The notes under the pieces: model-generated
What the model was told of the DNA's origin: nothing
The model's database searches: none
Seen by the model: the letters and a program-made list of their open reading frames with translations, nothing else
Position numbers and translations under genes: made by a program
Part shown: one piece after another, positions 4,873-53,295 of the stretch
How positions within the stretch are numbered: the first letter of the stretch is position 1
Layout: each line of letters starts with the position of its first letter
IMG/VR virus record: IMGVR_UViG_3300020440_000012
Location: 10,867 to 74,866 of that record
Origin: a virus
Taxonomy: Duplodnaviria > Caudoviricetes
Length of the DNA stretch: 64,000 nucleotides
Strand: one strand, 5' to 3'

Positions 4873-4899
4873 AGGCACTTTCAAGTCATACCTAGGACC
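4873..4899 (-). ncRNA. Candidate H-type pseudoknot motif, copy 1
   Basis: Minus strand G-GTC-CT-AGGTA-T-GAC-TTGAAAG-TGCCT; same geometry as 53269-53295. Confidence 0.5.
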
Positions 4900-5003
4900 A
4901 CTTTCAGTAAAACTTTTTCTAGACCGGTTCGTCCCTTTTTTGGTAACGCTAGATACTTGTTTTACTTATTTCTCCTTTGTTTCGGTGATACATGTATGAA
5001 AAT

Positions 5004-5076
5004 TGGAGCGAGTGAAAGACTTTAACTTTACCTTCAATCTGGATTGATTGATGTGCTGACGTTACACCACACTCGC
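5004..5076 (-). tRNA. Non-canonical or degenerate tRNA-Gly-like RNA with encoded CCA
   Basis: GCGAGTG/CACTCGC acceptor stem + U73 + CCA. D-loop AACGTCA lacks GG; 8-nt anticodon loop CAATCCAG; T-loop TTAAAGT with a 4-bp T stem. Confidence 0.65.
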
Positions 5077-5090
5077 ATAAGTTATAGTTT

Positions 5091-5097
5091 ATTATAC
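5091..5097 (-). promoter_or_regulatory. GTATAAT -10 element driving the tRNA-Gly-like RNA
   Basis: 14 nt upstream of the RNA 5' end and downstream of the terminator at 5130-5163. Confidence 0.55.
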
Positions 5098-5129
5098 AAC
5101 TTCAAGGATAATTTAAAGTTATTTTTTTA

Positions 5130-5163
5130 TAAAAAAAAGAAGATTCTTTTGAGGAGAATCTTC
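5130..5163 (-). terminator. Intrinsic terminator after the tRNA-Arg/Ile pair
   Basis: GAAGATTCT-CCTCAAA-AGAATCTTC followed by a T run. Confidence 0.8.
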
Positions 5164-5189
5164 GTAACAACCTTAGTGGCCTCCTAAAT

Positions 5190-5265
5190 TGGTGGACTCT
5201 GAGGGACTTGAACCCCCGGCCAAGTCGTTATGAGCGACCTGCTCTGACCACTGAGCTAAGAGTCC
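5190..5265 (-). tRNA. tRNA with CAT anticodon, most like tRNA-Ile2 (lysidine, reads AUA)
   Basis: GGACTCTTAGCTCAGTGGTCAGAGCAGGTCGCTCATAACGACTTGGCCGGGGGTTCAAGTCCCTCAGAGTCCACCA; the body resembles bacterial Ile2 more than elongator Met. Confidence 0.88.
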
Positions 5266-5274
5266 TTTTTAAAA

Positions 5275-5351
5275 TGGCGCACCTGGCAGGATTCGAACCT
5301 GCGACCGATGGAGTAGAAATCCATTGCTCTGTCCAACTGAGCTACAGGTGC
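5275..5351 (-). tRNA. tRNA-Arg(TCT)
   Basis: Full cloverleaf; anticodon arm ATGGA-TT-TCT-AC-TCCAT, TTCGAAT T-loop, CCA encoded. Confidence 0.95.
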
Positions 5352-5578
5352 TAATAAATTGGTGGTCCAAATTCATGTTCGCCAAGAACTTTTCCTTCTC
5401 TTTTTAGAATTTGTTTTTGTATTCGAAATGCTTTTTCTTCAGCTTGAATGGCTTTTGTGTTATAGTTGGACCATCTATCACCACCTACATTCTTACAGTC
5501 ATCTCTGTTGCGAGTGTATTTTAAAGCCTTCGCTCTTTCTTTCGTGAAGTCTTCTTGTAGTTGTTTTTTTGATGCCAC
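5351..5578 (-). CDS. Small basic hypothetical protein
   Basis: 75-aa ORF with an AAGGAG RBS, in the early cluster. Confidence 0.6.
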   Translation of the reverse strand: MASKKQLQEDFTKERAKALKYTRNRDDCKNVGGDRWSNYNTKAIQAEEKAFRIQKQILKREGKVLGEHEFGPPIY

Positions 5579-5592
5579 GCCTCTCCTTATCG

Positions 5593-5922
5593 TTATTTAA
5601 ATTCTACAACTGTATTGATTCTTTCAAATATACCTTTGATATTTTTATCATTATAACCATCATCTTTTAAAAGTTCTTTAACTCTTTCAACAGGAACATA
5701 TCCATGAACTATACATTTTCCTTCAGGGTTATCTGCTCTATCTTTTAGTTCTTGGATCAAAATCATATCACCAGTGTCTTCGTCAAAGAAGGCTACCTCT
5801 ACATGAGAGTAGGGTCCATAATTACTTTTTGGAATACAATATGCGTGTTTATCCGCTTGAATTGAAAGTTCACCACCTCTAAATGGTATTGGGTAATTTG
5901 ATTTCTTTATTCTATTTTTCAT
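5593..5922 (-). CDS. Hypothetical protein
   Basis: 109-aa ORF downstream of a sigma70 promoter. Confidence 0.65.
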   Translation of the reverse strand: MKNRIKKSNYPIPFRGGELSIQADKHAYCIPKSNYGPYSHVEVAFFDEDTGDMILIQELKDRADNPEGKCIVHGYVPVERVKELLKDDGYNDKNIKGIFERINTVVEFK

Positions 5923-5972
5923 TTTACTTTTTCAACTTAATCATAATTTAATCTCTCATTGTCTATACATAG

Positions 5973-6000
5973 ATTATCACAGTTCTACCAGTAATGTCAA
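5973..6000 (-). promoter_or_regulatory. Host sigma70-type early promoter
   Basis: TTGACA-16 nt-GATAAT with an extended TG. Confidence 0.7.
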
Positions 6001-6091
6001 CAGTATATGTCGATTTTAGACATAAAAATGTACATATTATTTGTATATGTCTATTCTGTGTACATTTAAACTGTGGCCGATTGTCACAACT

Positions 6092-6178
6092 TCAATCTGG
6101 GTCTTCCGTTGTTGAAAGCCATAAAAGAGAAATAAGTATTACTATAGCTAGTATTCCAAACCGTATTAAATCAGTCAT
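6092..6178 (-). CDS. 28-aa single-pass membrane microprotein
   Basis: Not in the ORF track: MTDLIRFGILAIVILISLLWLSTTEDPD; its start overlaps the end of the upstream gene (ATGACTGA). Confidence 0.55.
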   Translation of the reverse strand: MTDLIRFGILAIVILISLLWLSTTEDPD

Positions 6179-6413
6179 CTTCGTATTCCGAATACCAATT
6201 ATCTATAATCGCTGTGAAACCAGAGTACATAACACTGTACTCATTCATTGATTCACGAAACTCTTCTACTTCTTGGATTTGCTCTTTGGTTAGATCAAAC
6301 TCATCCTCTACGCCATAGTGTTCTGAAATTTGAGAACGAACATCATTGGCAATTTCTTGCTCATAGTTGTCTTCCCACTTATACATTCTTTCCCATTCGA
6401 ATTTATTTCTCAT
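6171..6413 (-). CDS. Acidic hypothetical protein
   Basis: 80-aa ORF overlapping both neighbours. Confidence 0.65.
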   Translation of the reverse strand: MRNKFEWERMYKWEDNYEQEIANDVRSQISEHYGVEDEFDLTKEQIQEVEEFRESMNEYSVMYSGFTAIIDNWYSEYEDD

Positions 6414-6637
6414 AGTTCATACCACTCCCTTTTATTAAACAACCCTGCACCAGTTCTTTTGCTATTAGGATATTCAAAACGATCCCAAACTCTTTCAAAA
6501 AAATAATGTACGAATGTCATCATTACCGATAGGAATATTCCAAACATCGTTACATGCCAGTCACCAAACCATATTCTACCAGCTAATGTACATAACACTA
6601 TGGATAGAACTCTCCAAACAATTACTTTTTTAGCCAT
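6410..6637 (-). CDS. DUF2061-like small membrane protein
   Basis: KVIVWRVLS...HYFFERVW pattern; ATG at 6637 preferred over the upstream TTG. Confidence 0.6.
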   Translation of the reverse strand: MAKKVIVWRVLSIVLCTLAGRIWFGDWHVTMFGIFLSVMMTFVHYFFERVWDRFEYPNSKRTGAGLFNKREWYEL

Positions 6638-6713
6638 AATTAAAACCAATAACAAAAAATAAGTTTCATATTAACGTACCTGTTGTATTTCTACTAGTCT
6701 ATTATACAAAAGT

Positions 6714-6977
6714 TTAAAGATTTTTAAGGTAATGAGACATTAGATTTTCAGATATTTGTTTTTCAGGCTCTTTGGATTGACCACCTATTATCGGTGTGTA
6801 GTCTTTAATATTAAGTTGATTCATATAAGCTTCTCTGAATTGAACATTTTCACTGAATTTTTGTTCATCTTTAGGTATAGACTTTCTTAACTGAGAAGTG
6901 TCTCTTGCAGATGCTCTACCGGATTCTTCCATCTTTTTATAGGCATTTGTTATTTGATTTGTCAGTTCGTTGTTCAT
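6714..6977 (-). CDS. Hypothetical late protein
   Basis: Start reassigned to the ATG at 6977, 5 nt after TATAAATA (6983-6990). Confidence 0.6.
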   Translation of the reverse strand: MNNELTNQITNAYKKMEESGRASARDTSQLRKSIPKDEQKFSENVQFREAYMNQLNIKDYTPIIGGQSKEPEKQISENLMSHYLKNL

Positions 6978-6985
6978 ATTGGTAT

Positions 6986-7885
6986 TTATATACCAAATAT
7001 ATCCTTTGTTAGTGTGGTAACACCTCTTTTTTGAACAAGTTGTGACGCACAGTAACATGCTTTTTCACAAGCTTCAAATATATTTTCACCTTTATCTATG
7101 TAGTGTGCTATTACAGCCATTACACTATCACCAGCACCTGTTACATCAAATACATCACCATTTGTGAGACATGCAAAATGTTTGTGTATAAAATCGTCTC
7201 TTCTAAATACATGCAGACCTCTGGGACCATCTGTAACAACCAACCATTTCCACTCATACTGATCTAGTTTTTGAAAAGACTTTTCTACTGAGAAATCACC
7301 GAACCATTCTTTATATTCTTTCATATTGGGTTTTACAAGAAAGACGCCTTTATAATAGTGAGGTTCATTCTTTGGGTCTACAAGAACTTTACAATGATCT
7401 TTTAAGTTATCCACTGCATGTATAATTTCTTTTTCTTGAATAACACCTTTGTTGTAATCACTAATACATACAACATCATCCTTTTCGGTATCTTCAATAA
7501 GATGTTTCCAAAGTTTTTCTGACTTCTCTGTAGCTTTACTATCTATGTCTAATCTAACAATGTGTTTACCACTATTGTCGGTTATTCTCGTTTTTGTTGT
7601 TGTTAGAGTATCGTCAACAGGTATAACATTCTTAGTATTGATATTAACATACTCACTCAGTAGACCGTTGACCGATTCAGCATTTTCATCAAAGCCTATA
7701 ATCGAATATAGATTTACTTTATCTTCTATGTTGGATAAGTTTACCGCAAGATTACCACAACCACCTATATTTCTAACTATATTACTTCTGTTCACAACAG
7801 GAACAGGTGCTTCTGGACTAATTCTGTTTACGTCACCAGAAATCCATTCATCTAGCATTAAATCACCTATGACATGAATGGCCAT
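6986..7885 (-). CDS. rfaE: D-glycero-D-manno-heptose-7-phosphate kinase (HldE/RfaE domain I)
   Basis: VIGDLMLD...RISPEAPVPVV, ISDYNKG, VDPK, DVTGAGDSV. Confidence 0.92.
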   Translation of the reverse strand: MAIHVIGDLMLDEWISGDVNRISPEAPVPVVNRSNIVRNIGGCGNLAVNLSNIEDKVNLYSIIGFDENAESVNGLLSEYVNINTKNVIPVDDTLTTTKTRITDNSGKHIVRLDIDSKATEKSEKLWKHLIEDTEKDDVVCISDYNKGVIQEKEIIHAVDNLKDHCKVLVDPKNEPHYYKGVFLVKPNMKEYKEWFGDFSVEKSFQKLDQYEWKWLVVTDGPRGLHVFRRDDFIHKHFACLTNGDVFDVTGAGDSVMAVIAHYIDKGENIFEACEKACYCASQLVQKRGVTTLTKDIFGI

Positions 7886-8407
7886 TTAGTCTCCTAGTTT
7901 TTCCCAGTCCTGTATTTGAATGTTTTTAGAATCTGTAATCTTAATCTTACAGCCTAGTTTTTCTTCGAGTTCTTTTAAAGTTGTTTTTTTCCAACACCTT
8001 TTATGTAGTTCTCCATTTTTCAACATGAACTCTTGATTTCCGTCTTTCCATATTTTTTCAATGGCTTGCAGACGATGAGGCTCTGAAGTATTAACGGGTT
8101 GAGGTGCGGGTTGACTATACTCTTGTTTAACTTGTTCCTCTGATGGTCTGATCTCTTCCGGTAGGTCATCAATAGACATCATATTAACAGTACTACCATC
8201 TTGATTAACTATGTTGATAGGTTGTGTTAAAGCTGGTCCTTTTTGAGGTTGATTATCTAGTCTTTTTTCTTCAAGTATTTGAAATTCGGTAATACCCATT
8301 GAAGAGTATAATTGTGAAACTTGCTGTGGACTTTCAGCATTAATTTCTTCAATTTCACCGTCTACTCTAACTATGTACTTTCTTAAACTGTTAGCATAAA
8401 TAGGCAT
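7886..8407 (-). CDS. Hypothetical protein
   Basis: 173-aa ORF in an operon with gp46. Confidence 0.65.
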   Translation of the reverse strand: MPIYANSLRKYIVRVDGEIEEINAESPQQVSQLYSSMGITEFQILEEKRLDNQPQKGPALTQPINIVNQDGSTVNMMSIDDLPEEIRPSEEQVKQEYSQPAPQPVNTSEPHRLQAIEKIWKDGNQEFMLKNGELHKRCWKKTTLKELEEKLGCKIKITDSKNIQIQDWEKLGD

Positions 8408-8408
8408 A

Positions 8409-10214
8409 TTATTTCTCCTTCGTAATTTTACTTATACCGTTTGTTTTGTCTACACTTATAATATTATCAAATGAATTTAACTTAACTGCCTCTCTATGAG
8501 AGATAACGTATACATTTTGATTATACAAAACATTAAACTCTCTTAAAATTTTAAATATTTCTCTAACCGCAAGATCATCTAAGTTTCCGTCTATGTACTC
8601 ATCCAATAGTAAAATATTACTGTTTATACCAGACCTATTCATTATAAAGTCACGAAATGCGAAGCTGATGGCTATTGATAGTCTCATCTTTTCACCACTA
8701 GAGAATGAGCCATACTCTGTCTCACCATTGGAGGTAATGAACTGATAATTAAGGTCTTTATCAAACATACATGTATAATCTGCACCCATGGATGCCAAAT
8801 ATGTTTGTATTTGTTTGTTTAACATCTTAATAAGGTCTGATACGACTAATCTTCTTATGTTGTCTTCACCTACAACCTTTTCTATAAAGTTGAGTATATT
8901 TTTATTTTCGACACACTTGTCTATCTGACCTTGTGTTTTTTGTAGGTCTTCTTTCTTTTTGTTAAGTAGTTCAGTAATAACAGGATCGTCAGATGAACCA
9001 TCGAGTTCTCTTTTTATTATTAATAGTCTTGTATCAATCTCTGATAATCGTCTCTTTTTGCTCTCGACTTCTTCTTTTATATTTTTTAATTTATTTAAGT
9101 TGTTTTTAATTTTTTCATCGACAACCAGTTTTCCAATATTCTTAATTAGTTTTTTTAGCTTTTCTCTTTCTTCTATTATATTACTTGCCAAACTTTTCGC
9201 CTGTTCTTTTACATCATCTAGACCTAGTTTTTTAGAAACAATAGGTTTACTATGTTCGGATATTTCATTATAGGTGTCTATATATTTTTTAACATAGTTT
9301 ATTTTATCTTCATATTCTTTCTTGAGAATGTTAGTTATTAATTGTTTCTTATTAGTTATCTGAACATCTAGAGACTCTCTTTTAGATTTTACACCGTTTA
9401 TAAACTCTGTTATTGATTGTATACCGGACTCAATCTTATCGATGTCTATCTTTTCTGTAGACAAAAGAATTTGTCCCTTCTCGGTATTTAACTCTGTTTG
9501 TTCGTTCTCAAGTTTTTCAATTTTCTCTGATTTATTTATATCTCTTTCTTTTTGACCACTTTCAATATCAGTTATGTCACCTCTTTGTGTATATGCTACT
9601 CGTTCTACAGCCGTTAGTTCTTTTTCATTTTCCAAATTATCTTTGTGTATGTTTCTGTACATTTCACCAAATATCTTTAGATCAAATATGTTTTCGATAA
9701 ACACTCTTTTGTCTTGTTTGGTCATTGAGAAAAAGCTGTAAGCCTGATCTGAGGTGAGTATGAAGGACCTTAAGAAAACTTCAAAGTCTGTTCTTAGAAT
9801 ATTCTTTTCTATGTAGTTTCTTGTTTCTCTACTGCTATGCTTTGTTAATTCATTTTCTTTTGATATTGAGTTTTTGTAAAGCTTGCAGTAACTCTTAAAT
9901 GGTGATACAGATACACCGGAAACTATGACAAAGGGTTTGTCGTCAGCCTTAAAGTATAAGATAACTTCTGTATTTCTAACAGGTAGTTGTCTGTTTGATA
10001 TTCTCTTAAGACTTACTTGATTTAACATCTTACCGAAAAGTGCAAAGGTGAATGCATTTATCAGTGATGATTTTCCGCATCCGTTCTTTGAACCAGGAAT
10101 ATCATTGTTTATACCTGTTATTAAACTTATACCCTTATTTGAATCGAAGTCAAATTGCTCTTTATCGAAACACATAAAGTTGTCGATTTTTATTTTTTCG
10201 AATGTCAGATTCAA
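8409..10214 (-). CDS. gp46: Recombination nuclease ATPase subunit (Rad50/SbcC-like)
   Basis: Walker A GSKNGCGKSS, coiled coil, FSSGE signature, LLLDE Walker B, VISH. Confidence 0.93.
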   Translation of the reverse strand: MNLTFEKIKIDNFMCFDKEQFDFDSNKGISLITGINNDIPGSKNGCGKSSLINAFTFALFGKMLNQVSLKRISNRQLPVRNTEVILYFKADDKPFVIVSGVSVSPFKSYCKLYKNSISKENELTKHSSRETRNYIEKNILRTDFEVFLRSFILTSDQAYSFFSMTKQDKRVFIENIFDLKIFGEMYRNIHKDNLENEKELTAVERVAYTQRGDITDIESGQKERDINKSEKIEKLENEQTELNTEKGQILLSTEKIDIDKIESGIQSITEFINGVKSKRESLDVQITNKKQLITNILKKEYEDKINYVKKYIDTYNEISEHSKPIVSKKLGLDDVKEQAKSLASNIIEEREKLKKLIKNIGKLVVDEKIKNNLNKLKNIKEEVESKKRRLSEIDTRLLIIKRELDGSSDDPVITELLNKKKEDLQKTQGQIDKCVENKNILNFIEKVVGEDNIRRLVVSDLIKMLNKQIQTYLASMGADYTCMFDKDLNYQFITSNGETEYGSFSSGEKMRLSIAISFAFRDFIMNRSGINSNILLLDEYIDGNLDDLAVREIFKILREFNVLYNQNVYVISHREAVKLNSFDNIISVDKTNGISKITKEK

Positions 10215-11482
10215 AGCATTTGCTCCTGTGTTATCTCAAAATATTCTTTCACCTTTTCTAAAATTACACTCTTCTCAACAGAAAATTCCTGAAATATTTT
10301 ATCGTCTAGAGATTCTACATATTGATTAATGTATTCTAGTTTTGAATTTTTATGATCTACATCTGGTTTGTTACTGTCATCATCTTCAAACTCTATAGAA
10401 AAGTCGTAATCTACAACACAAGGTTCTTTCGGCTTTTTTTCATTTATATGTGAGATAATCTCATTCAGTTTACCATAATCAAATTGTTTGTTCAGTATAA
10501 GTCTAACAAAGTTATTCTTGATATGTTTTTCTTTAAAAACTTCGTCTACAGGAAGTTTATCTACCGGTAAATCAGAAATAAAATATTTTCTGTGCATTGG
10601 TGATTCGTTGTTTTCGATAAACTCAACCTTTAGTGTATCGCAGTTTAAAATGTAGTGACCTCTATCGGAAGTTTTTGAGAATTTATTAAAATCACCCCAT
10701 GTAAGCTGAAAAGGTGTTCCTAAAAATGTAAAGTTTCTATCTTTAATATTAAAGGTTCTTCTTTGGTGAATATGTCCACTATATATTTGACCACCCTTTT
10801 TACAAAGTTCGATAAACTCTCCTATATGTTTTTTTGAATTAGCTTTCTTAATTGTGGTGTTTTTATCTAGGTGTGGGTTTTCAGTTAGATCAAGATCAAA
10901 ACCACTTTTAATCATTATGTTAGATATTTCAGCTTGTGAAACTTCTTCCGACATGTGATCTTCCATATAGGCTTCAATTAGATACTTATGTGATATATCA
11001 AAGTGGCCAAACATTCCATCATATTCTTCTTTTTGAAAGTGTTCAAGTTCGGATAGCCAGGGACATAAAAGAACTTTATTCTTTTTCATCATACACTCGG
11101 TTGGATTTTCGATGAGTTCAACATTTTTCATGTTTTGAAGCCACCTCATAGAGGATAAATTTGTTTCTGTGTTCGTTACCAGGTCATGATTACCTATGAT
11201 AAAGATAAGCTTTGCATGTTCTGTTATCTTTTTTATCATTTCTATAGAGTAACACATTGTCTCTACAGCAATAGACGGTCTTTCATGATGCCAATCACCA
11301 CCAAAAAGAACAGTTTTAATATTTCTTTCTTTTATTGTTTCTACGAGTCTGTTGATATAATCGTTTGCAACTTCTAATCTGGATTGTGCGTTTGATTTTA
11401 TACCTACATGAATGTCAGAAAATACTAAAATTTCTTCATCATTTATCTGAATCATAATCTTGGAGTCCACCCTTATCTGCAA
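10211..11482 (-). CDS. gp47: Recombination nuclease subunit (Mre11/SbcD-like)
   Basis: FSDIHVG, GGDWHH, IGNHD, FGHFD and SGHIH metallophosphoesterase motifs. Confidence 0.92.
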   Translation of the reverse strand: MQIRVDSKIMIQINDEEILVFSDIHVGIKSNAQSRLEVANDYINRLVETIKERNIKTVLFGGDWHHERPSIAVETMCYSIEMIKKITEHAKLIFIIGNHDLVTNTETNLSSMRWLQNMKNVELIENPTECMMKKNKVLLCPWLSELEHFQKEEYDGMFGHFDISHKYLIEAYMEDHMSEEVSQAEISNIMIKSGFDLDLTENPHLDKNTTIKKANSKKHIGEFIELCKKGGQIYSGHIHQRRTFNIKDRNFTFLGTPFQLTWGDFNKFSKTSDRGHYILNCDTLKVEFIENNESPMHRKYFISDLPVDKLPVDEVFKEKHIKNNFVRLILNKQFDYGKLNEIISHINEKKPKEPCVVDYDFSIEFEDDDSNKPDVDHKNSKLEYINQYVESLDDKIFQEFSVEKSVILEKVKEYFEITQEQML

Positions 11483-12290
11483 TCATTCTAATTTCTTCAA
11501 ATGCGTCTTTTGGAATATATCCAGTATCATCGATAAGCTTGTCTAAAGACATCACATTGTTAACGAGATGAAGCTTTTGTGAACAAATTAATTCATGTTG
11601 ATTCATAACTTCATACCATTCTGGTTGTCTAAACGCATCTGCTAGTTGTGATATTGTATATGTACCTGTGTTTCCTATATTATACACACCATTTAGATTT
11701 CGTTTAAGTAATTCAATGGTTGAGTTTACTATCTCTTCGGTTGAGCATACCGTATTAAATTCGTTTAAAAACTTATTAAATTTTTCCAGTTTGTAAAGTA
11801 AGTTTTTAGGATCTTTATACTTATTAAATAATAATCTAGGTCTTAGTATTAAATCGTCTTTATTACAATGAAGTTCACCAATCATTTTAGATACTGTATA
11901 GTTACAGTGAGTTTCTGTCTTACCATTCTCGTATTTTAATCCTTGTGTATTTTCATACAGACAGCCTGTTGAGATGTGTACAAACTTTTTTCCATAAAAT
12001 TTACAGAGATTGCTTAGATGTCTTACAAAGTCTCCGTTAATTGTTTGTACTTTTAGCCAGTTATTTTTGTCTTCGCAATACCTGGTATCTGATATACCTA
12101 TACAGTTTACAATATTATCATATTTGTATAGTTCTTCTAAAAATACTTTACTGTAAGTGCCTTCTATTATCTCATCTACGTTGACGTAACTTCGGTCTTT
12201 AACGGTGAATCCATATCTTTCAAATTCTTTTCCTACAAAACCTCTACCTAAAACTAATGTTTTCAGTTTTACTTCTGACTCTGAAACCAT
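11439..12290 (-). CDS. RmlD-like NAD(P)-dependent sugar reductase/epimerase
   Basis: LGRGFVG, HISTGCLY, YTVSK (YxxxK); adjacent to rmlB. Confidence 0.75.
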   Translation of the reverse strand: MVSESEVKLKTLVLGRGFVGKEFERYGFTVKDRSYVNVDEIIEGTYSKVFLEELYKYDNIVNCIGISDTRYCEDKNNWLKVQTINGDFVRHLSNLCKFYGKKFVHISTGCLYENTQGLKYENGKTETHCNYTVSKMIGELHCNKDDLILRPRLLFNKYKDPKNLLYKLEKFNKFLNEFNTVCSTEEIVNSTIELLKRNLNGVYNIGNTGTYTISQLADAFRQPEWYEVMNQHELICSQKLHLVNNVMSLDKLIDDTGYIPKDAFEEIRMIADKGGLQDYDSDK

Positions 12291-13243
12291 TCTACTGTCC
12301 TCTTTAAATTTGATTTAAAATTAGATTTGATTTTATCCGTATCATAGATACAACTTAATTTAAAGTTATCAACTGCATATTTGAGATCATGCATGTTTCC
12401 TCTAGGGTCTTCTACAAATTCAATATGATTGTCTGAATCTGTGTCCAATATTTCGCAAATATTTTTAATAAGTTCAACATTAGATAGGTCAACACCACTT
12501 CCTAGATTTAAGTATTTCATGTGGCCGTTACTATTATCGGCCACTCCCCATATTACTAGTTTGGTTACAATATCTGCTGTATCTCCGACATACAACCATT
12601 CTCTTTCGTTTTTACCTTCACCATAAACAGGTATCTTCTTATCATTCTTAATACTGTTTAAGATTACTGGTATAAATTTTGTTTTATCTTGATATTCACC
12701 AAAGTTATTAGATGGTCGTAATATTAAATATTTTCCTTTTTCATGATATTCAATATTAGCTAAATTAATCATTTGCTCTGCGAATAACTTAGAAACTGCA
12801 TATGGATTTCTGGGTTTAGGATATCGCTCTTCTTGAAATCTATCTTCATCTCCAAATTCTAGATGACCATAAATCTCATCTGTGGAGAAGTGTATAAGTC
12901 TTATATCATTTTTAAAGCACCATTTTGCAACTTCGTATGTACCTTTTACGTTTGTATGTATAAAGCTATCTAGTTCATTCAGTGATTTATCAACATGTGA
13001 CTCGGCTGCCATATGAATACATACATCAAAGTTTATTAGTTTGTTAAATTTGGAAATATTAACCACATCCTCCTTTTCAACGAAAAGTTTTGGATGTATA
13101 TAAGCAAATTCTAAAAGTTTGTTATTTGAGGCGTAAGTCATTTTGTCGATAACAACAACTGTTTCCACTACATCTTTTTCTAATAGTTTAAGAACTACGT
13201 TTGTGCCTATAAATCCACAACCACCTGTTACTATGACCTTCAT
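12269..13243 (-). CDS. rmlB: dTDP-glucose 4,6-dehydratase
   Basis: VTGGCGFIG, DKMTYAS, HMAAESHVD, STDEIYG, NPYAVSK, SNNFGEYQ. Confidence 0.92.
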   Translation of the reverse strand: MKVIVTGGCGFIGTNVVLKLLEKDVVETVVVIDKMTYASNNKLLEFAYIHPKLFVEKEDVVNISKFNKLINFDVCIHMAAESHVDKSLNELDSFIHTNVKGTYEVAKWCFKNDIRLIHFSTDEIYGHLEFGDEDRFQEERYPKPRNPYAVSKLFAEQMINLANIEYHEKGKYLILRPSNNFGEYQDKTKFIPVILNSIKNDKKIPVYGEGKNEREWLYVGDTADIVTKLVIWGVADNSNGHMKYLNLGSGVDLSNVELIKNICEILDTDSDNHIEFVEDPRGNMHDLKYAVDNFKLSCIYDTDKIKSNFKSNLKRTVEWFQSQK

Positions 13244-13244
13244 C

Positions 13245-13688
13245 TTAAACTTCCTTTACAATATCCGGATTTTGCTTAATTGTTTGCTTAGTAATTAAGT
13301 CTTTAATTTTTGTTGTAGACCACTCATGTGAACGAGTTGTGTAAATTACTTCTGGAGGTAGATCATCTCCCGTAAATGGCTTACCAATGTAATCTTCACC
13401 TAAAATTCTAATATCTGGTTTGAAAAACTTAATAAGATCATATAATTCTTCTTCTGTTTGATACATATAAACCTCGTCAACATACTGAATAGCCATCAGA
13501 GTTTTATATCTTTCATAATATGGTATTACAGGTTTATACTTGGTATATCTGGTAGATGAAGGATCTTTCTGTAAGAATACTAAGAATTTATCACAATGTC
13601 TTTTAGCTTCTTCGAAAGTATATATGTATCCTGGATGTAACAGATCGAAGTTACCTGCCGTAAAGCCTATTTTTTCCTTATTTTTCAT
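13245..13688 (-). CDS. Cytidylyl/adenylyltransferase (TagD/RfaE-domain-II family)
   Basis: AGNFDLLHPGY (HxGH variant), LGEDY, WSTTKIK. Confidence 0.82.
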   Translation of the reverse strand: MKNKEKIGFTAGNFDLLHPGYIYTFEEAKRHCDKFLVFLQKDPSSTRYTKYKPVIPYYERYKTLMAIQYVDEVYMYQTEEELYDLIKFFKPDIRILGEDYIGKPFTGDDLPPEVIYTTRSHEWSTTKIKDLITKQTIKQNPDIVKEV

Positions 13689-45671: not shown

Positions 45672-45806
45672 TTAGTAGGTAAAGAAATGTTGTTCGTAAA
45701 AAACTAGGTATACAAACTCTACAGGAATAAGTATATTTTAATATATAAATAAACAAGTTGATAAGTATAATAGAACATAAGTTTAGTATAGTTAAAAGGA
45801 GTTTAC

Positions 45807-46163
45807 ATGTTCTTGGATAAAGAGTCGTTAAATAAACTATTAGTAAGTAAGTATTCAATCGTTGTCGTAGGTAAACTACAAGACACCGACAGAAAAGTAA
45901 TCAAACACCTCCTAAATCTTTATAGTGATACAAAGAATTATGTAGGTGAATCTAATATCGATGGATATTTCTTCAAAGACATGTCAAAAGGACTCAGAAG
46001 CCTATATGATGTAGAAGATAATACATGTATTATGTTTTTTAAAAATGGGTTTCTTGAACACAAGAGACAAGGTAGTCAAGTATTATTTGGTAATCTAAAA
46101 AACTTAAATAATATAATTAAAGGCTTTTTAGAAATTAGATTACCAAAGTATGAGAGAATTTAA
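45807..46163 (+). CDS. Hypothetical protein, possible CxxC-less thioredoxin-like fold
   Basis: C-terminal CIMFFKNG segment; AAGGAG RBS. Confidence 0.5.
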   Translation: MFLDKESLNKLLVSKYSIVVVGKLQDTDRKVIKHLLNLYSDTKNYVGESNIDGYFFKDMSKGLRSLYDVEDNTCIMFFKNGFLEHKRQGSQVLFGNLKNLNNIIKGFLEIRLPKYERI

Positions 46164-46171
46164 GGAGAACT

Positions 46172-47377
46172 ATGTCTGAAAAACCTTTTGTAGCAGTAAA
46201 CTTTCCAGCGGATAACTCCGGCTGTTATTTTTATAGAATGTTAGCACCCAAACTTACGGTACAATCGGTGATAAACAATGTAACTTTTACAGAAACCAGT
46301 AGATTCATTGCCGATCCTGAATGGTTTCAAGATGTTAATCTATGTCACATGCAAAGACAGGTTAATGATCCTCAGTGTGATTATTATACAAGATTTATTG
46401 TTCCTTTAGGACAGAGAAACGGAATGTGGATTGTCTACAATGTAGACGATGCTGTTGGTATGGACGATATACCTAAATACAACTCTGCCTGGGAAGCTTA
46501 TCAAGATCCTAAGTTGATGCAGAACATCTCAACCATGATGCAACAGTCTGACTTTGTACTTGTTACTACAGACTATCTTAAAGACTATTATGTTAGAAAG
46601 TTTGGTGTAAAAGAAGACAATGTACTTGTAATACCTAATTATCTTCCTAAATGGTGGATGGGTCAGTATTATGATCTTGGTAAAATATTAGTAAATTATG
46701 ATAAGAATAAAAAGAAACCTAGATTAGGAATTATTGCAAGTAGTACACACTACGATCTACATGGTAAAAATAATTTTGTTGACGACTTTACCGAGATGAT
46801 TCCTTTTGTTAAGAAAACAGTTAACAAATATCAATGGGTATTTGTAGGTTGCATACCTAATGCACTACAAGATGAATTGAATGCAGGAAAGATAGAACTC
46901 GTAGGTGGTTCTAATATTATGAACTATCCAGATGTGATAGGTAACATAAATTGTCAAGCTATTATTCAACCTTTATTAAATAATGAATTTAACAGATGTA
47001 AATCTAATATTAAATTCTTAGAAGCTTGTGCAATCGGTACACCACTTATTGCTCAGAGAATAAACATATACGAACCTTACACCGATCTATTGTTTGACGA
47101 TATGGATGAACTACAGCAAAAGCTAGATATGGTTTTAGGTAGTAAAGATAAATTTAAATCTATCGTCAAGAAACAGAAAAAAGAACTAGATAGTGGTAGA
47201 AACGGTAGAGGTTGGTGGTTAGAAAACCCTGCAAATCTAGAAGACTGGGCACAGTTTTATCGATTAACTAAGAAATGTTTAAATGTAGATTTGAATATGA
47301 TTCTTCAACACGAACAACAAGAAAATCAACAGGAAGAACAGGAAGATATTGCAAAAGATTTGGAGATAATTAGATGA
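46172..47377 (+). CDS. GT-B (GT4-like) glycosyltransferase
   Basis: SGCYFYRM, VIPNYLP, QPLLNNEFNRCKSNIKFLEA...GTPLIA. Confidence 0.8.
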   Translation: MSEKPFVAVNFPADNSGCYFYRMLAPKLTVQSVINNVTFTETSRFIADPEWFQDVNLCHMQRQVNDPQCDYYTRFIVPLGQRNGMWIVYNVDDAVGMDDIPKYNSAWEAYQDPKLMQNISTMMQQSDFVLVTTDYLKDYYVRKFGVKEDNVLVIPNYLPKWWMGQYYDLGKILVNYDKNKKKPRLGIIASSTHYDLHGKNNFVDDFTEMIPFVKKTVNKYQWVFVGCIPNALQDELNAGKIELVGGSNIMNYPDVIGNINCQAIIQPLLNNEFNRCKSNIKFLEACAIGTPLIAQRINIYEPYTDLLFDDMDELQQKLDMVLGSKDKFKSIVKKQKKELDSGRNGRGWWLENPANLEDWAQFYRLTKKCLNVDLNMILQHEQQENQQEEQEDIAKDLEIIR

Positions 47378-48156
47378 TAACGGTTGCAGTTTTAAATTAT
47401 AAAAGACCTATTGAATGGCTAGAAGGTATTATATCTTCATCGCTGAAACAATCCGTATGTCAGATAACTCCAAATGTTATTATTTGTTCGGATGAATCTG
47501 AAGAAACCTTAAAAAAGAGTGACGTATTAAAAGATTTAGATTTTACTTACATCGAAAATACGGGTGAATCTATTGCAAATTCTAAGAATAAAATTATCGA
47601 AAAATCAATAGAGTTAGACACAGAAAAATTAATACTTATAGAGGATGATACAGTCATATCTGATGAATTTGATGATACTTTTGAAAAATACATAGATTTA
47701 ATGAATGATATGAACCTAGGTGTTATATTTAATTGTTATACTAAACCAGCTAATTATGTACTAACAAAACCGTCACCTAGACTATTACTGGGATATAAAG
47801 GACATGCAAAATCTGAAATGCTGACAACAAACAGGCATGAAATGTGTGACTTTATGATTATTGATGTTGTTAAGAATAAAGAACGATTCAACGAAGACTT
47901 GTGTATATTTGAATCAAGTGAATATATATTTAAATCACAAAAATCAGGACAGATACCTTTCTTAAATCAGTTCTTTGATATTCCAGACTCATGGGAGAAA
48001 ATTAGTGGAAGAGAGATTGACACTTCTAGAAATTGTGAAAATCATGTCGTTAATGAAGATAGACAGAAAATGGATAAAGTGGTAAATGGTGAGTGGAGTG
48101 TAAATAATGACCTAAATGACATTATTGAATATATACGAAAACAACTAGGAGTATAA
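47374..48156 (+). CDS. GT-A (GT2-like) glycosyltransferase
   Basis: SIANSKNKII, LILIEDD (DxD-like). Confidence 0.65.
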   Translation: MITVAVLNYKRPIEWLEGIISSSLKQSVCQITPNVIICSDESEETLKKSDVLKDLDFTYIENTGESIANSKNKIIEKSIELDTEKLILIEDDTVISDEFDDTFEKYIDLMNDMNLGVIFNCYTKPANYVLTKPSPRLLLGYKGHAKSEMLTTNRHEMCDFMIIDVVKNKERFNEDLCIFESSEYIFKSQKSGQIPFLNQFFDIPDSWEKISGREIDTSRNCENHVVNEDRQKMDKVVNGEWSVNNDLNDIIEYIRKQLGV

Positions 48157-48157
48157 A

Positions 48158-48340
48158 ATGAGTTATATAGCAAAAGGTACAGAAGTTTCTTATGATGAAA
48201 TCAAAATAGGTGAAACATTTATCAGAGATAATATAAGATGGGAAAAGACAAAAGATGGTGATGTTGAAATAGAACCAGTCTGTGTTGAAATCCCAGATAG
48301 TGGTAAAATTTTACTTGAAAATAAACTTCTAAATGGATAA
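48158..48340 (+). CDS. Small hypothetical protein
   Basis: 60 aa with a GGAG RBS. Confidence 0.55.
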   Translation: MSYIAKGTEVSYDEIKIGETFIRDNIRWEKTKDGDVEIEPVCVEIPDSGKILLENKLLNG

Positions 48341-48346
48341 AAAAAT

Positions 48347-48943
48347 ATGAGATTTGTAGAAGACGCACACAGAATAGGCTCAAGAGATGGTAAGTTTGAT
48401 CCTGAGAAAATTGAAGTTTCTCGTGATATTGTTGCACTAAGAAAAGATGAGATTCAAGAAGAAGTTCAACATAATGGCATTGTGATACCAACAAAAACCA
48501 TCGCAGGATTCAAAGGAGCAACAGGTACGATCATCGCACTAGGTGACGAAGCTAGAGAAGATTACGGACTTGAAATAGGTGATAGAGTAAAGTTCGATGA
48601 TGTTGGTGTTTTTTATGATACATATCCTATAGTAATTCTAAAGGCAGAAAATTGCATTGTTAAATGTGACCCAGAAGATAGTGATAGACATATACCTCTT
48701 AAGAATATGGTATTCTCTAGATCAATAGATTCTGTTCATAACCTTGGTACTGATAGTACAATCATCGTATCAGATAAACACAATCAAGCCGAAGTGGCCG
48801 AAGTGTTTGCGGTAGATAATGAAGATGTTGTAAAAGTTGGCGACAAGATATTAGTTATGGCGGATGGTGACAGAATAAACTCTAAAGACGGTGAATACTT
48901 CATCTATAAACAAGACGAGATACCAGCTATAATTGAAGACTAA
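48347..48943 (+). CDS. groES: Co-chaperonin with two tandem GroES domains
   Basis: NGIVIP...GTIIALG...LEIGDRVKF, then IPLKNMVF...AEVFAV...VKVGDKIL...YKQDEIPAIIE. Confidence 0.75.
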   Translation: MRFVEDAHRIGSRDGKFDPEKIEVSRDIVALRKDEIQEEVQHNGIVIPTKTIAGFKGATGTIIALGDEAREDYGLEIGDRVKFDDVGVFYDTYPIVILKAENCIVKCDPEDSDRHIPLKNMVFSRSIDSVHNLGTDSTIIVSDKHNQAEVAEVFAVDNEDVVKVGDKILVMADGDRINSKDGEYFIYKQDEIPAIIED

Positions 48944-48960
48944 TATCTGTATAATAAAGC

Positions 48961-51555
48961 ATGTACAGAAACATTTCATACGTCCAATCAAAAGACAAAC
49001 GCTCGGCTTTTATTGATATTTGGACCTGGGACGAATCGGGTAATAGAATTCATAAAAGAGTTCCACATAAGTCATTCGTAACCTATGAAGTTGATTATAA
49101 AACTGACTTGCAAAGTATTTATGGTACCTATCTGAAACGTAAGTTCTTTGAGACAACCTCTTCCAGGTATCAATGGATAAAAGATCATCCAGAGAAAAAG
49201 ATATACGAGTCTTCAATTCCCGAATTTGAGTATCTAAATTCTCATTATTCAGATACATATCAAGAGCCAGACTTTGCTAAACATGATTTGAGAGTTCATT
49301 ACATCGACATCGAGATTGCGATTGAAGATGAGTTTCCAGAAACAGATAAGGTGGACTATCCTATCAATCTTATTACTGTCTATGATAGTGACCATAGTAA
49401 ATATTTCACATGGGCGTTAGGTGACTGTAAAGCACATAGAGATGACATTCAGTTATTCACATTTGATAGTGAAGTAAAACTACTTAATCACTATCTTAGT
49501 TGGCACGGAAGAAACTATCCTGATGTAATCACAACATGGAACGGAAAGTTGTTCGACATACCTTATATGTGTGGTCGAATCAAACGAGTTCTAGGCGAAG
49601 ATGCTATGAAGAGTATGTCACCTGTCAATCGTGTAAAGCAACATAAAGACCGAGTAACAGGTGAGCCTCTTTTCGTTATAGACGGTATCACAAACTGGGA
49701 TTATTATATTTTATATAAGAATAAGTTTCTTAAGAAGTCAAAAGGCTCTTATAGTTTAGGTAATGTAGGTGACTATGTTCTAGGTATCAGCAAGATCGAG
49801 TATGAAGGTTCTATGAAAGACCTATACAAAAAAGACTTTCAGAAGTTTTTTGAGTATAACATACGAGATGTAGAGATACTTGTTCTATTGGAAGAAAAAG
49901 AGCAACTACTAAAATTATCTAGAAGTATCTGTAACATGTCACTTGCACCTTATGAAAAGATATATGCGTCTATACCTTATATCATCAACTGTCTGTCTTT
50001 ATATACATACAATACTACAGGTAAGATTTTTCCAAAAGTAACCCAGTCTGTAAAAGATTCACATAGATTTGAAGGTGCCTTCGTGTTTCCCACAGTTCCT
50101 GGCTTCTTTAAGAATGGTGTTGCTGTTATTGACTTGAACTCTCTGTATCCTAATACACTGATTGCAGGCAATATGTCACCAGAAACAAAAGTAGGTACAT
50201 ACGATAAGATTAGTGATAATGAGTATTCAGTACACACAACTAAAGGTGTTACAAAGCATTTAAACAAACAACAATTTGATGCATTACTTAAGACAAAATG
50301 TATCAATACAGATAACAAGACTCTGTTTCTAAAGCATGAAGTTAGAGAGGGTATTGTTCCTACATTCTGTAAAAAGATGTATGCCGATAGAAAGAAGTTT
50401 CAAAAGAAGATGAATGATGTCATTCGTCAAATAAACAAAACTAAAGATGAGACTGATCCTAATCCCGACATAATCAAGGAGTTAGAGAATGAAAGAGATA
50501 GATATAACTTCATTCAGTATACCTGGAAGATATTCTTAAACTCTATTTATGGTATGTTTGGTACAGAGTTTAGTCCCATCTATGACATTGACATTGCACA
50601 ATCTATTACACTCAATGGCCAGTTTGTTATCAAAGCTATACCTGAATTTGTTGTTGAACACATGAAAGACAAATATTCAGCAGAAGGTGACATTGTGCTG
50701 TTCGGTGATACAGACTCTATCGGTATCGACTATGAATCCGCTGTTACTAAGTATTGTAGTGAAAATCAGAAAGATATTAATGATCTTTCTAGACATGATA
50801 TTAGAATGATAACAAAAGACCTTGATGAGTTTGTTAACAAAGACATCAACGAACATTGTGCTAAAATCGTAAACGAAAGATTCAATACAACACAAGGTGA
50901 CAACATTGCATTCTCACGAGAGAAGTTTTGTATGGAAGCCATGTTCTTTTCTAAGAAACACTATATATTACATATTGTAGATAAAGATGGTCACAAAACA
51001 GATGAGTTTGATTATAAAGGTGTGGATATAGCTAAGAACGAGTTAGCACCCGTTGTAAAAACTTTTCTCAAATCTATCTTCGAGAAAATATGTCGTGAGA
51101 GATGGAGTCAAGATAGATTCAATCAAGAACTTGAACAAGTATGGAATGAGTATAAGAATTTACCCTTTGAGGAGATTAAGAGAAACACCGGTTGGAACAC
51201 TAACAAAAAGTCAACTGGCTTCTTAAAGGTGGAAGCAAAAACAGGCACACATGTAAAGGCCGCACATTATTACAATCAGATGATTGAACACTTAGGTGTG
51301 AAAGGTAAATACGAAGAGTTAAAAGTAGGTGATGATGTTCAATGGTGCTACATCAATCAAGATAACCCTTTTAACATAGAAGTTATTGGTTACAAAGATA
51401 TATATCCAAAAGAGTTCAACGACATATTTCAAGTAGATTATAATCTAAAGTTTGAAAAAGATATTGTGAAACCTCTTCAACACTTATGTGATATTATGCA
51501 TTGGATACCTTTTAATCCAAACGAACAGACTGCACAAAATATATTTGATTTGTAG
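48961..51555 (+). CDS. gp43: Family B DNA polymerase
   Basis: Exonuclease DIE, YNIRDV, DLNSLYP, KIFLNSIYG, GDTDS, KKHY. Confidence 0.97.
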   Translation: MYRNISYVQSKDKRSAFIDIWTWDESGNRIHKRVPHKSFVTYEVDYKTDLQSIYGTYLKRKFFETTSSRYQWIKDHPEKKIYESSIPEFEYLNSHYSDTYQEPDFAKHDLRVHYIDIEIAIEDEFPETDKVDYPINLITVYDSDHSKYFTWALGDCKAHRDDIQLFTFDSEVKLLNHYLSWHGRNYPDVITTWNGKLFDIPYMCGRIKRVLGEDAMKSMSPVNRVKQHKDRVTGEPLFVIDGITNWDYYILYKNKFLKKSKGSYSLGNVGDYVLGISKIEYEGSMKDLYKKDFQKFFEYNIRDVEILVLLEEKEQLLKLSRSICNMSLAPYEKIYASIPYIINCLSLYTYNTTGKIFPKVTQSVKDSHRFEGAFVFPTVPGFFKNGVAVIDLNSLYPNTLIAGNMSPETKVGTYDKISDNEYSVHTTKGVTKHLNKQQFDALLKTKCINTDNKTLFLKHEVREGIVPTFCKKMYADRKKFQKKMNDVIRQINKTKDETDPNPDIIKELENERDRYNFIQYTWKIFLNSIYGMFGTEFSPIYDIDIAQSITLNGQFVIKAIPEFVVEHMKDKYSAEGDIVLFGDTDSIGIDYESAVTKYCSENQKDINDLSRHDIRMITKDLDEFVNKDINEHCAKIVNERFNTTQGDNIAFSREKFCMEAMFFSKKHYILHIVDKDGHKTDEFDYKGVDIAKNELAPVVKTFLKSIFEKICRERWSQDRFNQELEQVWNEYKNLPFEEIKRNTGWNTNKKSTGFLKVEAKTGTHVKAAHYYNQMIEHLGVKGKYEELKVGDDVQWCYINQDNPFNIEVIGYKDIYPKEFNDIFQVDYNLKFEKDIVKPLQHLCDIMHWIPFNPNEQTAQNIFDL

Positions 51556-51583
51556 TAAATACAAGAGACTATAGGAGATTACA

Positions 51584-53257
51584 ATGGCCATATTTGATAG
51601 GTTTAGAAGAAACAAAGACATCAACCCATCTGCTGATGTTATGAACAATGTTCAAAATATTGACCCTGATGAGGGTTATGAAGTAACAAAGGTACGAGAA
51701 GAAGATCAAAGAATTAGCACAACATTGGCATATCCAAGTAATGATTCTATTCATCAATTCTTGGCCGCACCGGTGGCATCTGATAAGTTTAAGAGATTAA
51801 ATGAATACAGAGCGATGTCAAATCATGTGGAAGTTTCCGATGCTATTGATGAGGTTTGTGACTCCGTGTATTCAGTAGATGAATTAGGTAACTTCTTAAA
51901 TCTTGATATAAAAAACGATAAGAAATTTACCGACAGACAAAGAAAAATTTTGGCCGATGAATTTAAAAAGTTTGTAGACCTCTATGATTTCGAAAAGAAT
52001 ATCTTCAACTACGCTAGAACATTTGTTGTAGAAGGTGAACTAGCATTTGAAAATGTCATTGATCCTAAAAGTCCAGAAAAGGGTATCCTGTCAGTAAAAC
52101 TTCTTGATAACTCAAAATACGAATTATTAAAAGACCTGACAACATATGAAATTATTGGTATATTCTTTGATATATCTCCTACAGAAGCCGAAACTGTACT
52201 ACACACAAACTATGGAACTTCTTATAGCTATTTCAATGAAATAGACAGACACTCAAACTCTCTTTCGTATAGCAATGCATTTGCTGATGATAAGAAAGTA
52301 CCTTTACTTTTCAGTCAAGTTACATACATTAATTCAGGTGTGTTTGATGTTAATAGAACATATCCAGTTCCACCCCTTGATAAAGCTAGACAAGCCTATA
52401 GACAATTAATATTAATTGAAGATGGTGTTTTAATTTATCGTGTAGCAAGATCACCTGAAAGATTAGTATTCAATATTGCATCTGGTAATACAAGTGGTCA
52501 AAAAGCACAACAGCAACTACTTCAAATGGTCAAAAGATTTAATCAAAGAAAGACAACTAAAACTTCATCGGGTGAGAGGGGTATCACAAATGAATATGAT
52601 CCTCATCAGGTTGTAGAATCTTACTGGTTCTTAAAGCCGGACGGAACAGAAGGTTCTAGTGTGGAAAGTATTGGTGGAAGTTCAGATTTTGGTGAATTAG
52701 AAGACTTGAAGTTCTTTACTAGAAAACTATACAGATCACTAAAAGTTCCTTTCAGTCGCTTCGAACAACCAGAAAATACTATTAGTCAAGGTGAAGACAT
52801 CACATATGAAGAATATAAGTTTGCTAAATTTGTTAAGAGACTACAACAACAGATTGCTTCTGGTATCAATGAGTCATTTAGAACACACTTAAAACTTAAG
52901 AAGCTATGGGAGCAATACAAAATTTCAAATAGAGACTTGGATGTTATAGCAACTCCACCAGCTTTATATGAACTATATCAAACCGCAAAACTGAACGAAC
53001 TAAAAATGGAAGCATATAGCAGTATAGCCGATAATGATAAGTTCTCATATACATTAGCAATGAAAAAGATACTTAATATGTCCGAAGATGAGATCGAAGA
53101 GAACGACAGAATGCTTGATATAGAATCTGAAAAACAAGCAGTTCGTGAATACTGGGCAGAAAAAGTATCTGAATATGGCTCAAGAGAAAAGGCTGAGAAA
53201 GCCATTGCTCAAGAAGAACAAGAAGACTCTGAAGAAGACGACTCACCTTTCGGCTAA
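51584..53257 (+). CDS. gp20: Portal protein
   Basis: EVSDAIDE, LDKARQAYRQLILIEDGVLIYRVARSPERLVF, LYRSLKVP, KFAKFV. Confidence 0.96.
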   Translation: MAIFDRFRRNKDINPSADVMNNVQNIDPDEGYEVTKVREEDQRISTTLAYPSNDSIHQFLAAPVASDKFKRLNEYRAMSNHVEVSDAIDEVCDSVYSVDELGNFLNLDIKNDKKFTDRQRKILADEFKKFVDLYDFEKNIFNYARTFVVEGELAFENVIDPKSPEKGILSVKLLDNSKYELLKDLTTYEIIGIFFDISPTEAETVLHTNYGTSYSYFNEIDRHSNSLSYSNAFADDKKVPLLFSQVTYINSGVFDVNRTYPVPPLDKARQAYRQLILIEDGVLIYRVARSPERLVFNIASGNTSGQKAQQQLLQMVKRFNQRKTTKTSSGERGITNEYDPHQVVESYWFLKPDGTEGSSVESIGGSSDFGELEDLKFFTRKLYRSLKVPFSRFEQPENTISQGEDITYEEYKFAKFVKRLQQQIASGINESFRTHLKLKKLWEQYKISNRDLDVIATPPALYELYQTAKLNELKMEAYSSIADNDKFSYTLAMKKILNMSEDEIEENDRMLDIESEKQAVREYWAEKVSEYGSREKAEKAIAQEEQEDSEEDDSPFG

Positions 53258-53268
53258 TATAAAAAAAA

Positions 53269-53295
53269 GAGCAGTTTAACGTCATGCTCAGGACT
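53269..53295 (-). ncRNA. Candidate H-type pseudoknot/terminator motif, copy 2
   Basis: Minus strand A-GTC-CT-GAGCA-T-GAC-GTTAAAC-TGCTC followed by T8. Confidence 0.5.

Follow-up and report, generated by a model that had tools for sequence, protein, structure and literature searches.

A compact H-type RNA pseudoknot closing two leftward units of a T4-like marine phage recurs across phage and bacterial contigs

The DNA analysed here is a stretch of 64,000 nt (the window; all coordinates are positions in it) from the 74.9-kb IMG/VR virus record IMGVR_UViG_3300020440_000012. Domain matches to a gp20 portal, a gp21-type prohead protease and a family B DNA polymerase characterise the phage as distantly T4-like; its portal is only 26–29% identical to that of any cultured phage, and it was seen in marine metagenomes from nine studies. 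Two copies of a small RNA pseudoknot are encoded on the minus strand. Copy 1 (4898..4873, -) is placed 3 nt past the stop of a rightward gene for a TnsA-like endonuclease (4402..4869, +; N-terminal domain, Pfam PF08722, E 1e-17), and copy 2 (53294..53269, -) is placed 11 nt past the stop of the T4-type portal gene (gp20; 51584..53257, +; Pfam PF07230, E 2e-90), both on the strand opposite to the gene. On their own strand, copy 1 closes a non-coding unit headed by a tRNA-like element (5004..5076, -) and copy 2 closes a cassette of three open reading frames (ORFs; 53347..54102, -). At both sites a leftward unit and a rightward gene converge with their 3' ends, an arrangement that the initial annotation had described and that the ORF positions bear out. 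Megablast of both knot regions against named phages gave no match.

Read from 5' to 3', copy 1 is GTC-CT-AGGTA-T-GAC-TTGAAAG-TGCCT and copy 2 is GTC-CT-GAGCA-T-GAC-GTTAAAC-TGCTC. Both cores comprise 26 nt with the same spacing and contain a first stem P1 (GUC/GAC), a loop L1 (CU), a second stem P2, a junction U and a last loop L3. P2 is AGGUA/UGCCU with one U.G pair in copy 1 and GAGCA/UGCUC in copy 2 (53269..53294, -), and L3 is UUGAAAG and GUUAAAC, respectively. Compared with copy 1, copy 2 shows two fully compensatory pair changes in P2 and a C-G in place of the U.G. The extra 5' base in the 27-nt spans given earlier corresponds to a fourth P1 pair of the family, which is G.U in copy 1 (4873..4899, -; (G)GUC/GAC(U)) and an A/G mismatch in copy 2. 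Copy 1 is followed by an AUUUUAU tail (4866..4872, -) and P2 of copy 2 immediately by a U8 run (53261..53268, -), which presumably forms an intrinsic-terminator tail with P2. Neither site has the shape of a terminator on the plus strand; the elements are one-directional.

The motif GTCCTN5TGAC with a fully paired P2 was expected 0.001 times per window (2000 shuffles) and was observed twice. A covariance model built from 61 homologues, with both window copies excluded, found copy 2 with 44.9 bits (E 3e-9) and copy 1 with 29.4 bits (E 3e-5); the next match in the window had an E of 1.6. A looser scan that considered only the geometry gave 8 matches versus 3.5 in shuffles, and the CU and U loop bases were present in copies 1 and 2 only. 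More or divergent copies were not found by pattern scans elsewhere in the whole 74.9-kb record; the covariance model covered the window. Judged by the scans and the model, the two sites are copies of a real, non-random and structurally well-supported RNA element, as had been claimed from the identical spacing and the compensatory changes in P2.

Homologues were collected with patterns that fix some of the loop bases, and the counts given below cover the matches listed and are, therefore, lower bounds. A pattern with P1 and some loop bases fixed and P2 left free revealed more than 89 loci in viral contigs, and 4–5 of the 5 P2 pairs were formed in 84 of 92 matches listed. Conversely, when P1 was left free and the inner P2 pairs and loops were fixed, a perfect 3-bp P1 was present in 74 of the 76 non-redundant phage matches listed, and at least nine complementary forms of P1 were seen among them (GAC/GTC, GTC/GAC, CAC/GTG, ATC/GAT, GCC/GGC, CGC/GCG, CTC/GAG, GAT/ATC and TTC/GAG). 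P1, which had been called invariant, is so within the window but covaries freely elsewhere. In an alignment of 65 sequences, 93% of the cells were paired and 7 of 8 pairs showed changes on both sides; no shuffle attained these values and slid controls reached 22–56%. The covariation of P1 and P2 that had been proposed as a check on the initial annotation was thus found. The base 5' of P1 and the first base of L3, two columns that neither search pattern constrained, were paired in 53 of the 65 sequences with six pair types; P1 is, therefore, usually 4 bp long. The A-U pair closing P2 did not covary and is A.G in one subclass, so that P2 consists of four covarying pairs and an A-U or A.G closing pair.

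An independent set was obtained from bacterial and archaeal genome contigs, in which P1 and P2 were both perfect in 98 of the 128 matches listed. The hosts, in whose phages and prophages the motif occurs, belong to the Bacillota, Bacteroidota, Cyanobacteria, Planctomycetota, Omnitrophota, Patescibacteria, Chloroflexota, Pseudomonadota, Leptospiraceae and Verrucomicrobiota. One well-paired match lies in a contig of a metagenome-assembled Woesearchaeota genome (L278, 2610–2635); the motif could reach archaeal viruses if the binning is right, otherwise this may be a binning error. Named carriers are many Staphylococcus phages of the genus Phietavirus, Lactobacillus phage phiEF-1.1 and the crAss-like phage cr7_1. 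The latter (L094) has tandem copies upstream of a primase gene (1460–1485 and 1502–1527), which are 16 nt apart and differ in P1 (GAG/CUC vs GAC/GUC). On other contigs (L227, L260, L279), 3–6 copies were seen within a few kb. In the marine metatranscriptome run X9, a 5.9-kb contig with a depth of 81 matches the window at 53269–53301 (33 nt) only, and the same knot is therefore present in a different marine entity of higher abundance.

The resulting consensus has 26–27 nt with a P1 of 3–4 bp, the L1 CU, a P2 of 5 bp, the one-base junction U and an A-rich L3 of 6–7 nt (nUUAAAC); copy 2 is identical to it. The invariance of CU, junction U and AAA in the alignments was partly imposed by the search patterns, but copies found without loop constraints keep these bases with few exceptions. 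Taken together, the comparison of about 200 homologues on contigs of phages and bacteria strongly supports an H-type pseudoknot with covariation in both stems, and the paired but changing P2 seen in the window is part of this pattern. Since the loops stay the same while the stems covary, the target of the element is likely to be universal, e. g. RNA polymerase, the ribosome or the machinery of RNA decay.

The initial annotation had not recognised the element as a named family. Indeed, the only matches above the gathering score that Rfam 15 gave in the window were two tRNAs, and searches with an E of up to 10 at both sites and of up to 1 in three motif-carrying named phages revealed nothing relevant. 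A ribozyme (pistol, hammerhead or HDV-like) and a mimic of a tRNA acceptor were considered and dropped, since the motif is too small and matches no Rfam model. As a text string in the full-text literature, the motif sequence was found only in primers, and no description of it was found in the literature searched on pseudoknots, scaffold genes and exoribonuclease-resistant RNA of phages; it could be contained in a published list of 10,006 candidates for structured RNAs of viruses (PMC10690425). We regard the element as an uncatalogued, widespread and new variant of the compact coremin/luteovirus-type pseudoknot.

Next, the genes around the family members were compared. Among the matches listed, the nearest long upstream ORF was on the strand of the knot in 93 of 108 cases in the phage set and in 65 of 81 in the genome set, and 81 sense-sense arrangements stand against 4 antisense-antisense ones in the phage set. 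The knot is thus oriented in sense behind its upstream gene in about 80–86% of cases, in line with the placement at 3' ends that the initial annotation had proposed. The downstream gene was co-directional in 33 and convergent in 32 cases in the set collected without requirement for a T run. Since the downstream gene may run either way, the knot belongs to the gene in front. The distance from the upstream stop codon peaked at 6–7 nt (14 and 11 cases) in the phage set and at 6–8 nt in the genome set, and distances of 0–3 nt did not occur; in only about 30% of the copies is it within 9 nt. With a spacing of 6–8 nt, the knot would lie just beyond the stretch that a terminating ribosome covers. [quoted passage not shown] A T-rich tail follows 25 of the 98 unbiased copies listed and a minority of the extra copies in phage loci. 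T-rich sequence does follow both window copies, as stated earlier, but as a component of the motif the U run was rejected, since only about a quarter of the unbiased copies have it; it is an add-on.

In one subclass, the knot lies 45–88 nt before head scaffold genes. The ATG 9 nt 3' of the knot in class 2 was considered as a start codon and rejected, because the scaffold ORFs begin 45–88 nt further on. In Staphylococcus phage B236 (L092, 1499–1580) and Lactobacillus phage phiEF-1.1 (L093, 1519–1610), the leader of the scaffold gene contains, in this order, the knot, UUAUGC, a second conserved hairpin (CGUGG..CCACG), an A-rich run and a Shine-Dalgarno sequence; in phiEF-1.1 the hairpin loop CGUU is pairable with a downstream AACG. 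This looks like a larger composite leader.

The gap between portal and protease gene at copy 2 (53258–54194, 940 bp) contains the three small leftward ORFs (53347–53661, 53676–53930 and 53980–54102; 104, 84 and 40 aa) and promoter-like sites. The 104-aa ORF has no match in Pfam or PHROG, and no relative of it was found in viral contigs. In relatives with a 77% identical portal (L199–L201), the cassette and the knot are both missing and the portal gene is followed by an ordinary hairpin with a T run and then by the protease gene. A strain variant represented by one RNA-library contig lacks 53670–53915. From the relatives and the strain deletion it follows that copy 2 closes an acquired leftward cassette. 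It is 52 nt away from the last stop codon of the cassette, and no small ORF ends 6 nt before it. A convincing promoter was not found after the knot; a 9/12 match at 53285–53256 would be directed into the portal gene in antisense. Parts of the region are present in three metatranscriptome runs as assembled contigs, which give no information on ends, strand or level.

At copy 1, the leftward order is tRNA-Arg and tRNA-Met, an ordinary terminator (5163–5139), a TGTATAAT box which we identified by eye, the tRNA-like element, a non-coding RNA of about 105 nt and the knot. ARAGORN predicted the tRNA-like element only when its threshold was relaxed. The prediction has an acceptor stem of 7 bp, a T stem of 4 bp, an anticodon loop of 8 nt with the four-base anticodon 'atcc', and an encoded CCA. 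It had neither a tRNA match in Rfam nor a BLAST match in named phages; by its predicted features it could be a quadruplet-decoding or a decayed tRNA. The TnsA-like gene has relatives of 43–47% identity on other viral contigs (L322–L324), and no knot was found at their loci. This gene, which adjoins the tRNA cluster in the T4-like phage, may be a mobile nuclease gene.

Because the junctions in the window are convergent, there is no downstream gene on the same strand for the knots to serve. From the covariation that establishes the fold, the sense orientation and the placement behind genes we infer an activity, and we propose, with a probability of roughly one half, that the window copies are pseudoknot-locked terminators that also cap the 3' end of the RNA. 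In both, a U run is joined to the knot where a leftward transcription unit, directed head-on against a rightward gene, would end. P2 and the U run would form an intrinsic terminator that stops the leftward units before they enter the portal and endonuclease genes in antisense. The P2 hairpin by itself (5–6 bp, 11-nt loop, about -6 kcal/mol) would be too weak for this and would be locked by P1 and the A-rich loop, and the completed knot would then shield the RNA 3' end from 3'-to-5' exonucleases. For the family as a whole, the knot would be a constant cap or boundary marker of RNA ends and the U run an optional addition. The proposal is favoured by the U run directly after P2 and the convergent junction in both copies, and by the ordinary terminator that takes the place of copy 2 in the cassette-free relatives. 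The constant link to the upstream gene, the minimum spacing beyond a terminating ribosome and the frequent convergent junctions likewise argue for a 3'-end cap or boundary element. With intrinsic terminators the window copies share a stem and, immediately after it, a U run (U8; AUUUUAU) where a transcription unit ends.

Several observations weigh against this proposal. Intrinsic terminators are defined by a G+C-rich hairpin with a stem of at least 5 bp and a loop of 3–8 nt, and by a U run directly after it; both copies have the U run and stems of 5–6 bp, but the loop of 11 nt is outside the usual limits and is tied into the pseudoknot, the P2 hairpins are weak, and a simple terminator scan called neither copy. 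About three quarters of the family lack the U run and termination is, therefore, not its general function. Many copies with a U run lie inside co-directional late operons before scaffold genes, a setting in which an efficient stop of transcription would be detrimental. The window copies deviate from the typical spacing of 6–8 nt (copy 2 with its 52 nt, copy 1 because it follows a non-coding RNA). Nested-fold energies are unremarkable compared with shuffles (z 0.02 and -0.79), so that the case for the knot is comparative and not thermodynamic. Finally, an RNA-library contig (53037–53440) bridges copy 2, which decides nothing either way.

Among the alternatives, we considered whether the knot is an exoribonuclease-resistant RNA (xrRNA) similar to the coremin motif, which would stop a 5'-to-3' exonuclease of the RNase J type and protect the RNA downstream, e. 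g. the scaffold or capsid message. Coremin (GUCCGAAGACGUUAAACUAC, PMC10520033) has a first hairpin (hp1) of 3–4 bp, the loop of which is YGAD or YGNNAD; it is followed by a conserved spacer and by a second hairpin (hp2) that is required (PMC6546385). In the model proposed for coremin, which is an H-type pseudoknot, the spacer adenosines occupy the minor groove of stem 1 (PMC10321173). The likeness is very close. Both motifs have a first stem of 3–4 bp, which is GUC/GAC in coremin and in both window copies, and the linker GUUAAAC is the same in coremin and copy 2. In both, the loop of stem 1 pairs with bases after the linker, the linker adenosines are predicted to lie in the minor groove of stem 1, and the element is often found a few nt past the last ORF (8 nt in SPlV5). 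In xrRNA-WCC, a selected Watson-Crick variant of coremin that also promotes frameshifting (PMC10321173), the second stem (S2) is formed by Watson-Crick pairs as in the phage motif, with 3 bp compared to the 5 bp of the phage P2.

When the defining features of coremin were compared one by one, the phage P1 (3 bp plus the usual fourth pair) fell within the 3–5 bp of hp1. The 10-nt spacer GUUAAACUAC agrees in part, with its first 7 nt (nUUAAAC in the family, GUUAAAC in copy 2, UUGAAAG in copy 1) but not with its CUAC end, the place of which is taken by the variable 3' arm of P2. The phage loop C-U-N4-A-U agrees with the coremin loop consensus only in the first Y and the last two positions (A, D), its second base being always U instead of G; it comprises 8 nt (CU + 5 + U), and S2 has 5 bp, whereas the S2 of coremin has 3 bp or is non-canonical. 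The second hairpin, with at least 4 bp directly after the spacer, is absent: a U run follows in the window, unrelated sequence elsewhere, and no hairpin is conserved. Since the loop consensus and hp2 are lacking, the phage motif is not a member of coremin, but by analogy it may work in a coremin-like manner. Coremin is known from plant, fungal and invertebrate RNA viruses (PMC6546385, PMC10520033, PMC10321173), and these papers do not mention phage or bacteria, whereas the hosts of the phage motif are bacteria, which have no Xrn1.

A flaviviral xrRNA also stops the bacterial RNase J1 (PMC5760640) and such blocks are, therefore, not enzyme-specific. This and the many copies located 45–88 nt upstream of head scaffold genes fit an exonuclease block, but coremin requires hp2 for resistance to Xrn1, no gene follows either window copy on the same strand, and the family is positioned by the upstream stop codon and not by a downstream start. 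Moreover, the hosts include Gammaproteobacteria and Betaproteobacteria. RNase J is not known from some lineages of these types, which weighs against the idea further. We consider an exonuclease block of this kind unlikely for the window copies.

Equally doubtful is a device linked to the ribosome: with the stop codon in the ribosome, the knot would lie at its mRNA entrance and would either keep ribosomes that have terminated from sliding on into the following cistron or modulate termination or readthrough. The sharp peak at 6–8 nt in two independent sets is just the spacing used by frameshift and readthrough pseudoknots, and for coremin, both a stalling of scanning ribosomes and a promotion of -1 frameshifting have been described in vitro. 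Yet a stop codon lies within 9 nt in only about 30% of the copies, the upstream ORFs come from numerous families that are not related to each other, and no open frame continues consistently past the stop. With a stop 52 nt away and no small ORF ending beside copy 2, and with a non-coding RNA before copy 1, the window lacks an adjacent stop codon just as it lacks a same-strand gene downstream, so that both the exonuclease block and the ribosome device fit it poorly.

The -1 frameshift pseudoknots of luteoviruses and enamoviruses (beet western yellows virus, BWYV; potato leafroll virus, PLRV; pea enation mosaic virus 1, PEMV-1; sugarcane yellow leaf virus, ScYLV) resemble the phage motif in an L1 of 2 nt starting with C, the junction U, a 7-nt A-rich last loop and a total length of about 26–28 nt. 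The conserved bases of the phage motif match the positions of the C+.G-C triple and the A-minor contacts in BWYV. However, the stem lengths are swapped (3–4 + 5 bp in the phage vs 5 + 3 bp in luteoviruses), and the phage motif has no slippery sequence upstream and is located after stop codons or at transcript ends and not inside overlapping ORFs. A comparison with the luteovirus type has likewise been drawn for coremin (PMC10321173).

The knot might also be bound by a conserved protein, e. g. a nuclease or a chaperone, or by a small ligand as in riboswitches, with CU, the junction U and AAAC as the contacts. We hold this to be improbable to a similar extent. The loop bases are conserved while the stems covary, also in copies not pre-selected by patterns, but this would be equally explained by triplex contacts within the knot, as they are made by the conserved loop bases inside luteovirus pseudoknots. 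The flanking genes are functionally unrelated, and with hosts from more than 10 phyla, possibly including an archaeon, the partner would need to be universal. In size and topology the motif is reminiscent of the preQ1-I riboswitch (RF00522), which is also a compact H-type pseudoknot of about 30 nt with an A-rich last loop; its stem lengths are reversed, the phage gene context has no link to queuosine or to any single pathway, and the Rfam riboswitch models gave no match.

Still less probable is a boundary acting mainly at the level of DNA, with the shared 26-bp sequence promoting recombinational shuffling of cassettes in the manner of the promoter/stem-loop motifs (PeSLs) of T4-type phages. 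PeSL cassettes (PMC2839356, PMC4122927) have been described at such plastic spots and, like the 3' stabiliser hairpins of the REP type, they are short repeated structured elements at the borders of small variable cassettes, as is copy 2 in this T4-like phage. Copy 2 bounds an insertion that is missing in relatives and partly lost in a strain variant, and the knot is not syntenic in relatives of either site. However, the strong strand bias (81 vs 4) and the covariation of both stems show that selection acts on a folded RNA, and the 75 kb contain no more than two copies. A PeSL is a plain hairpin that is linked to an early promoter of the sigma-70 type, recurs where cassettes border on each other and is lineage-specific in its sequence, whereas the knot is a pseudoknot that is not followed by a convincing promoter and keeps its loops across phages of many phyla. 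A chance likeness of two ordinary weak terminator hairpins without pseudoknot, which the mere two window copies and their ordinary nested-fold energies would allow, is refuted at the level of sequence comparison by the roughly 0.001 pairs expected, the hits of an independent model (E 3e-9 and 3e-5) and the family-wide covariation of P1.

Within the window, the knot also shows the DNA between portal and protease gene to be an acquired leftward cassette, which would have its own stop signal. Beyond this, we tentatively raise the possibility, to which we give clearly lower odds and which is drawn by analogy, that the knot is a host-independent mechanical roadblock, the counterpart of the coremin xrRNA in viruses of prokaryotes, that stops exonucleases and possibly ribosomes at cistron boundaries. 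The near-identity to the coremin core makes a roadblock for nucleases or ribosomes directly testable in vitro. If such a roadblock were confirmed, the element would explain how neighbouring genes of a phage operon are given different stabilities, would serve as an annotation marker for the ends of genes and cassettes, and would offer synthetic biology a very small, portable part for RNA stabilisation or insulation. It would also be the first element of the xrRNA type in the bacterial world, and DNA phages of more than 10 bacterial phyla would use it to divide long transcripts into separately stable messages. The GUC/GAC-GUUAAAC core common to both motifs would then be due either to very old common descent or to independent evolution towards a single physical solution.

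At copy 2, a rival 5-bp hairpin, GCAGU/ACUGC (53294–53298 with 53270–53274, -), competes with P1 and P2 and is part of the predicted nested fold of minimum energy. It is confined to this copy and is probably incidental, but on the basis of this prediction it could make the knot switchable.

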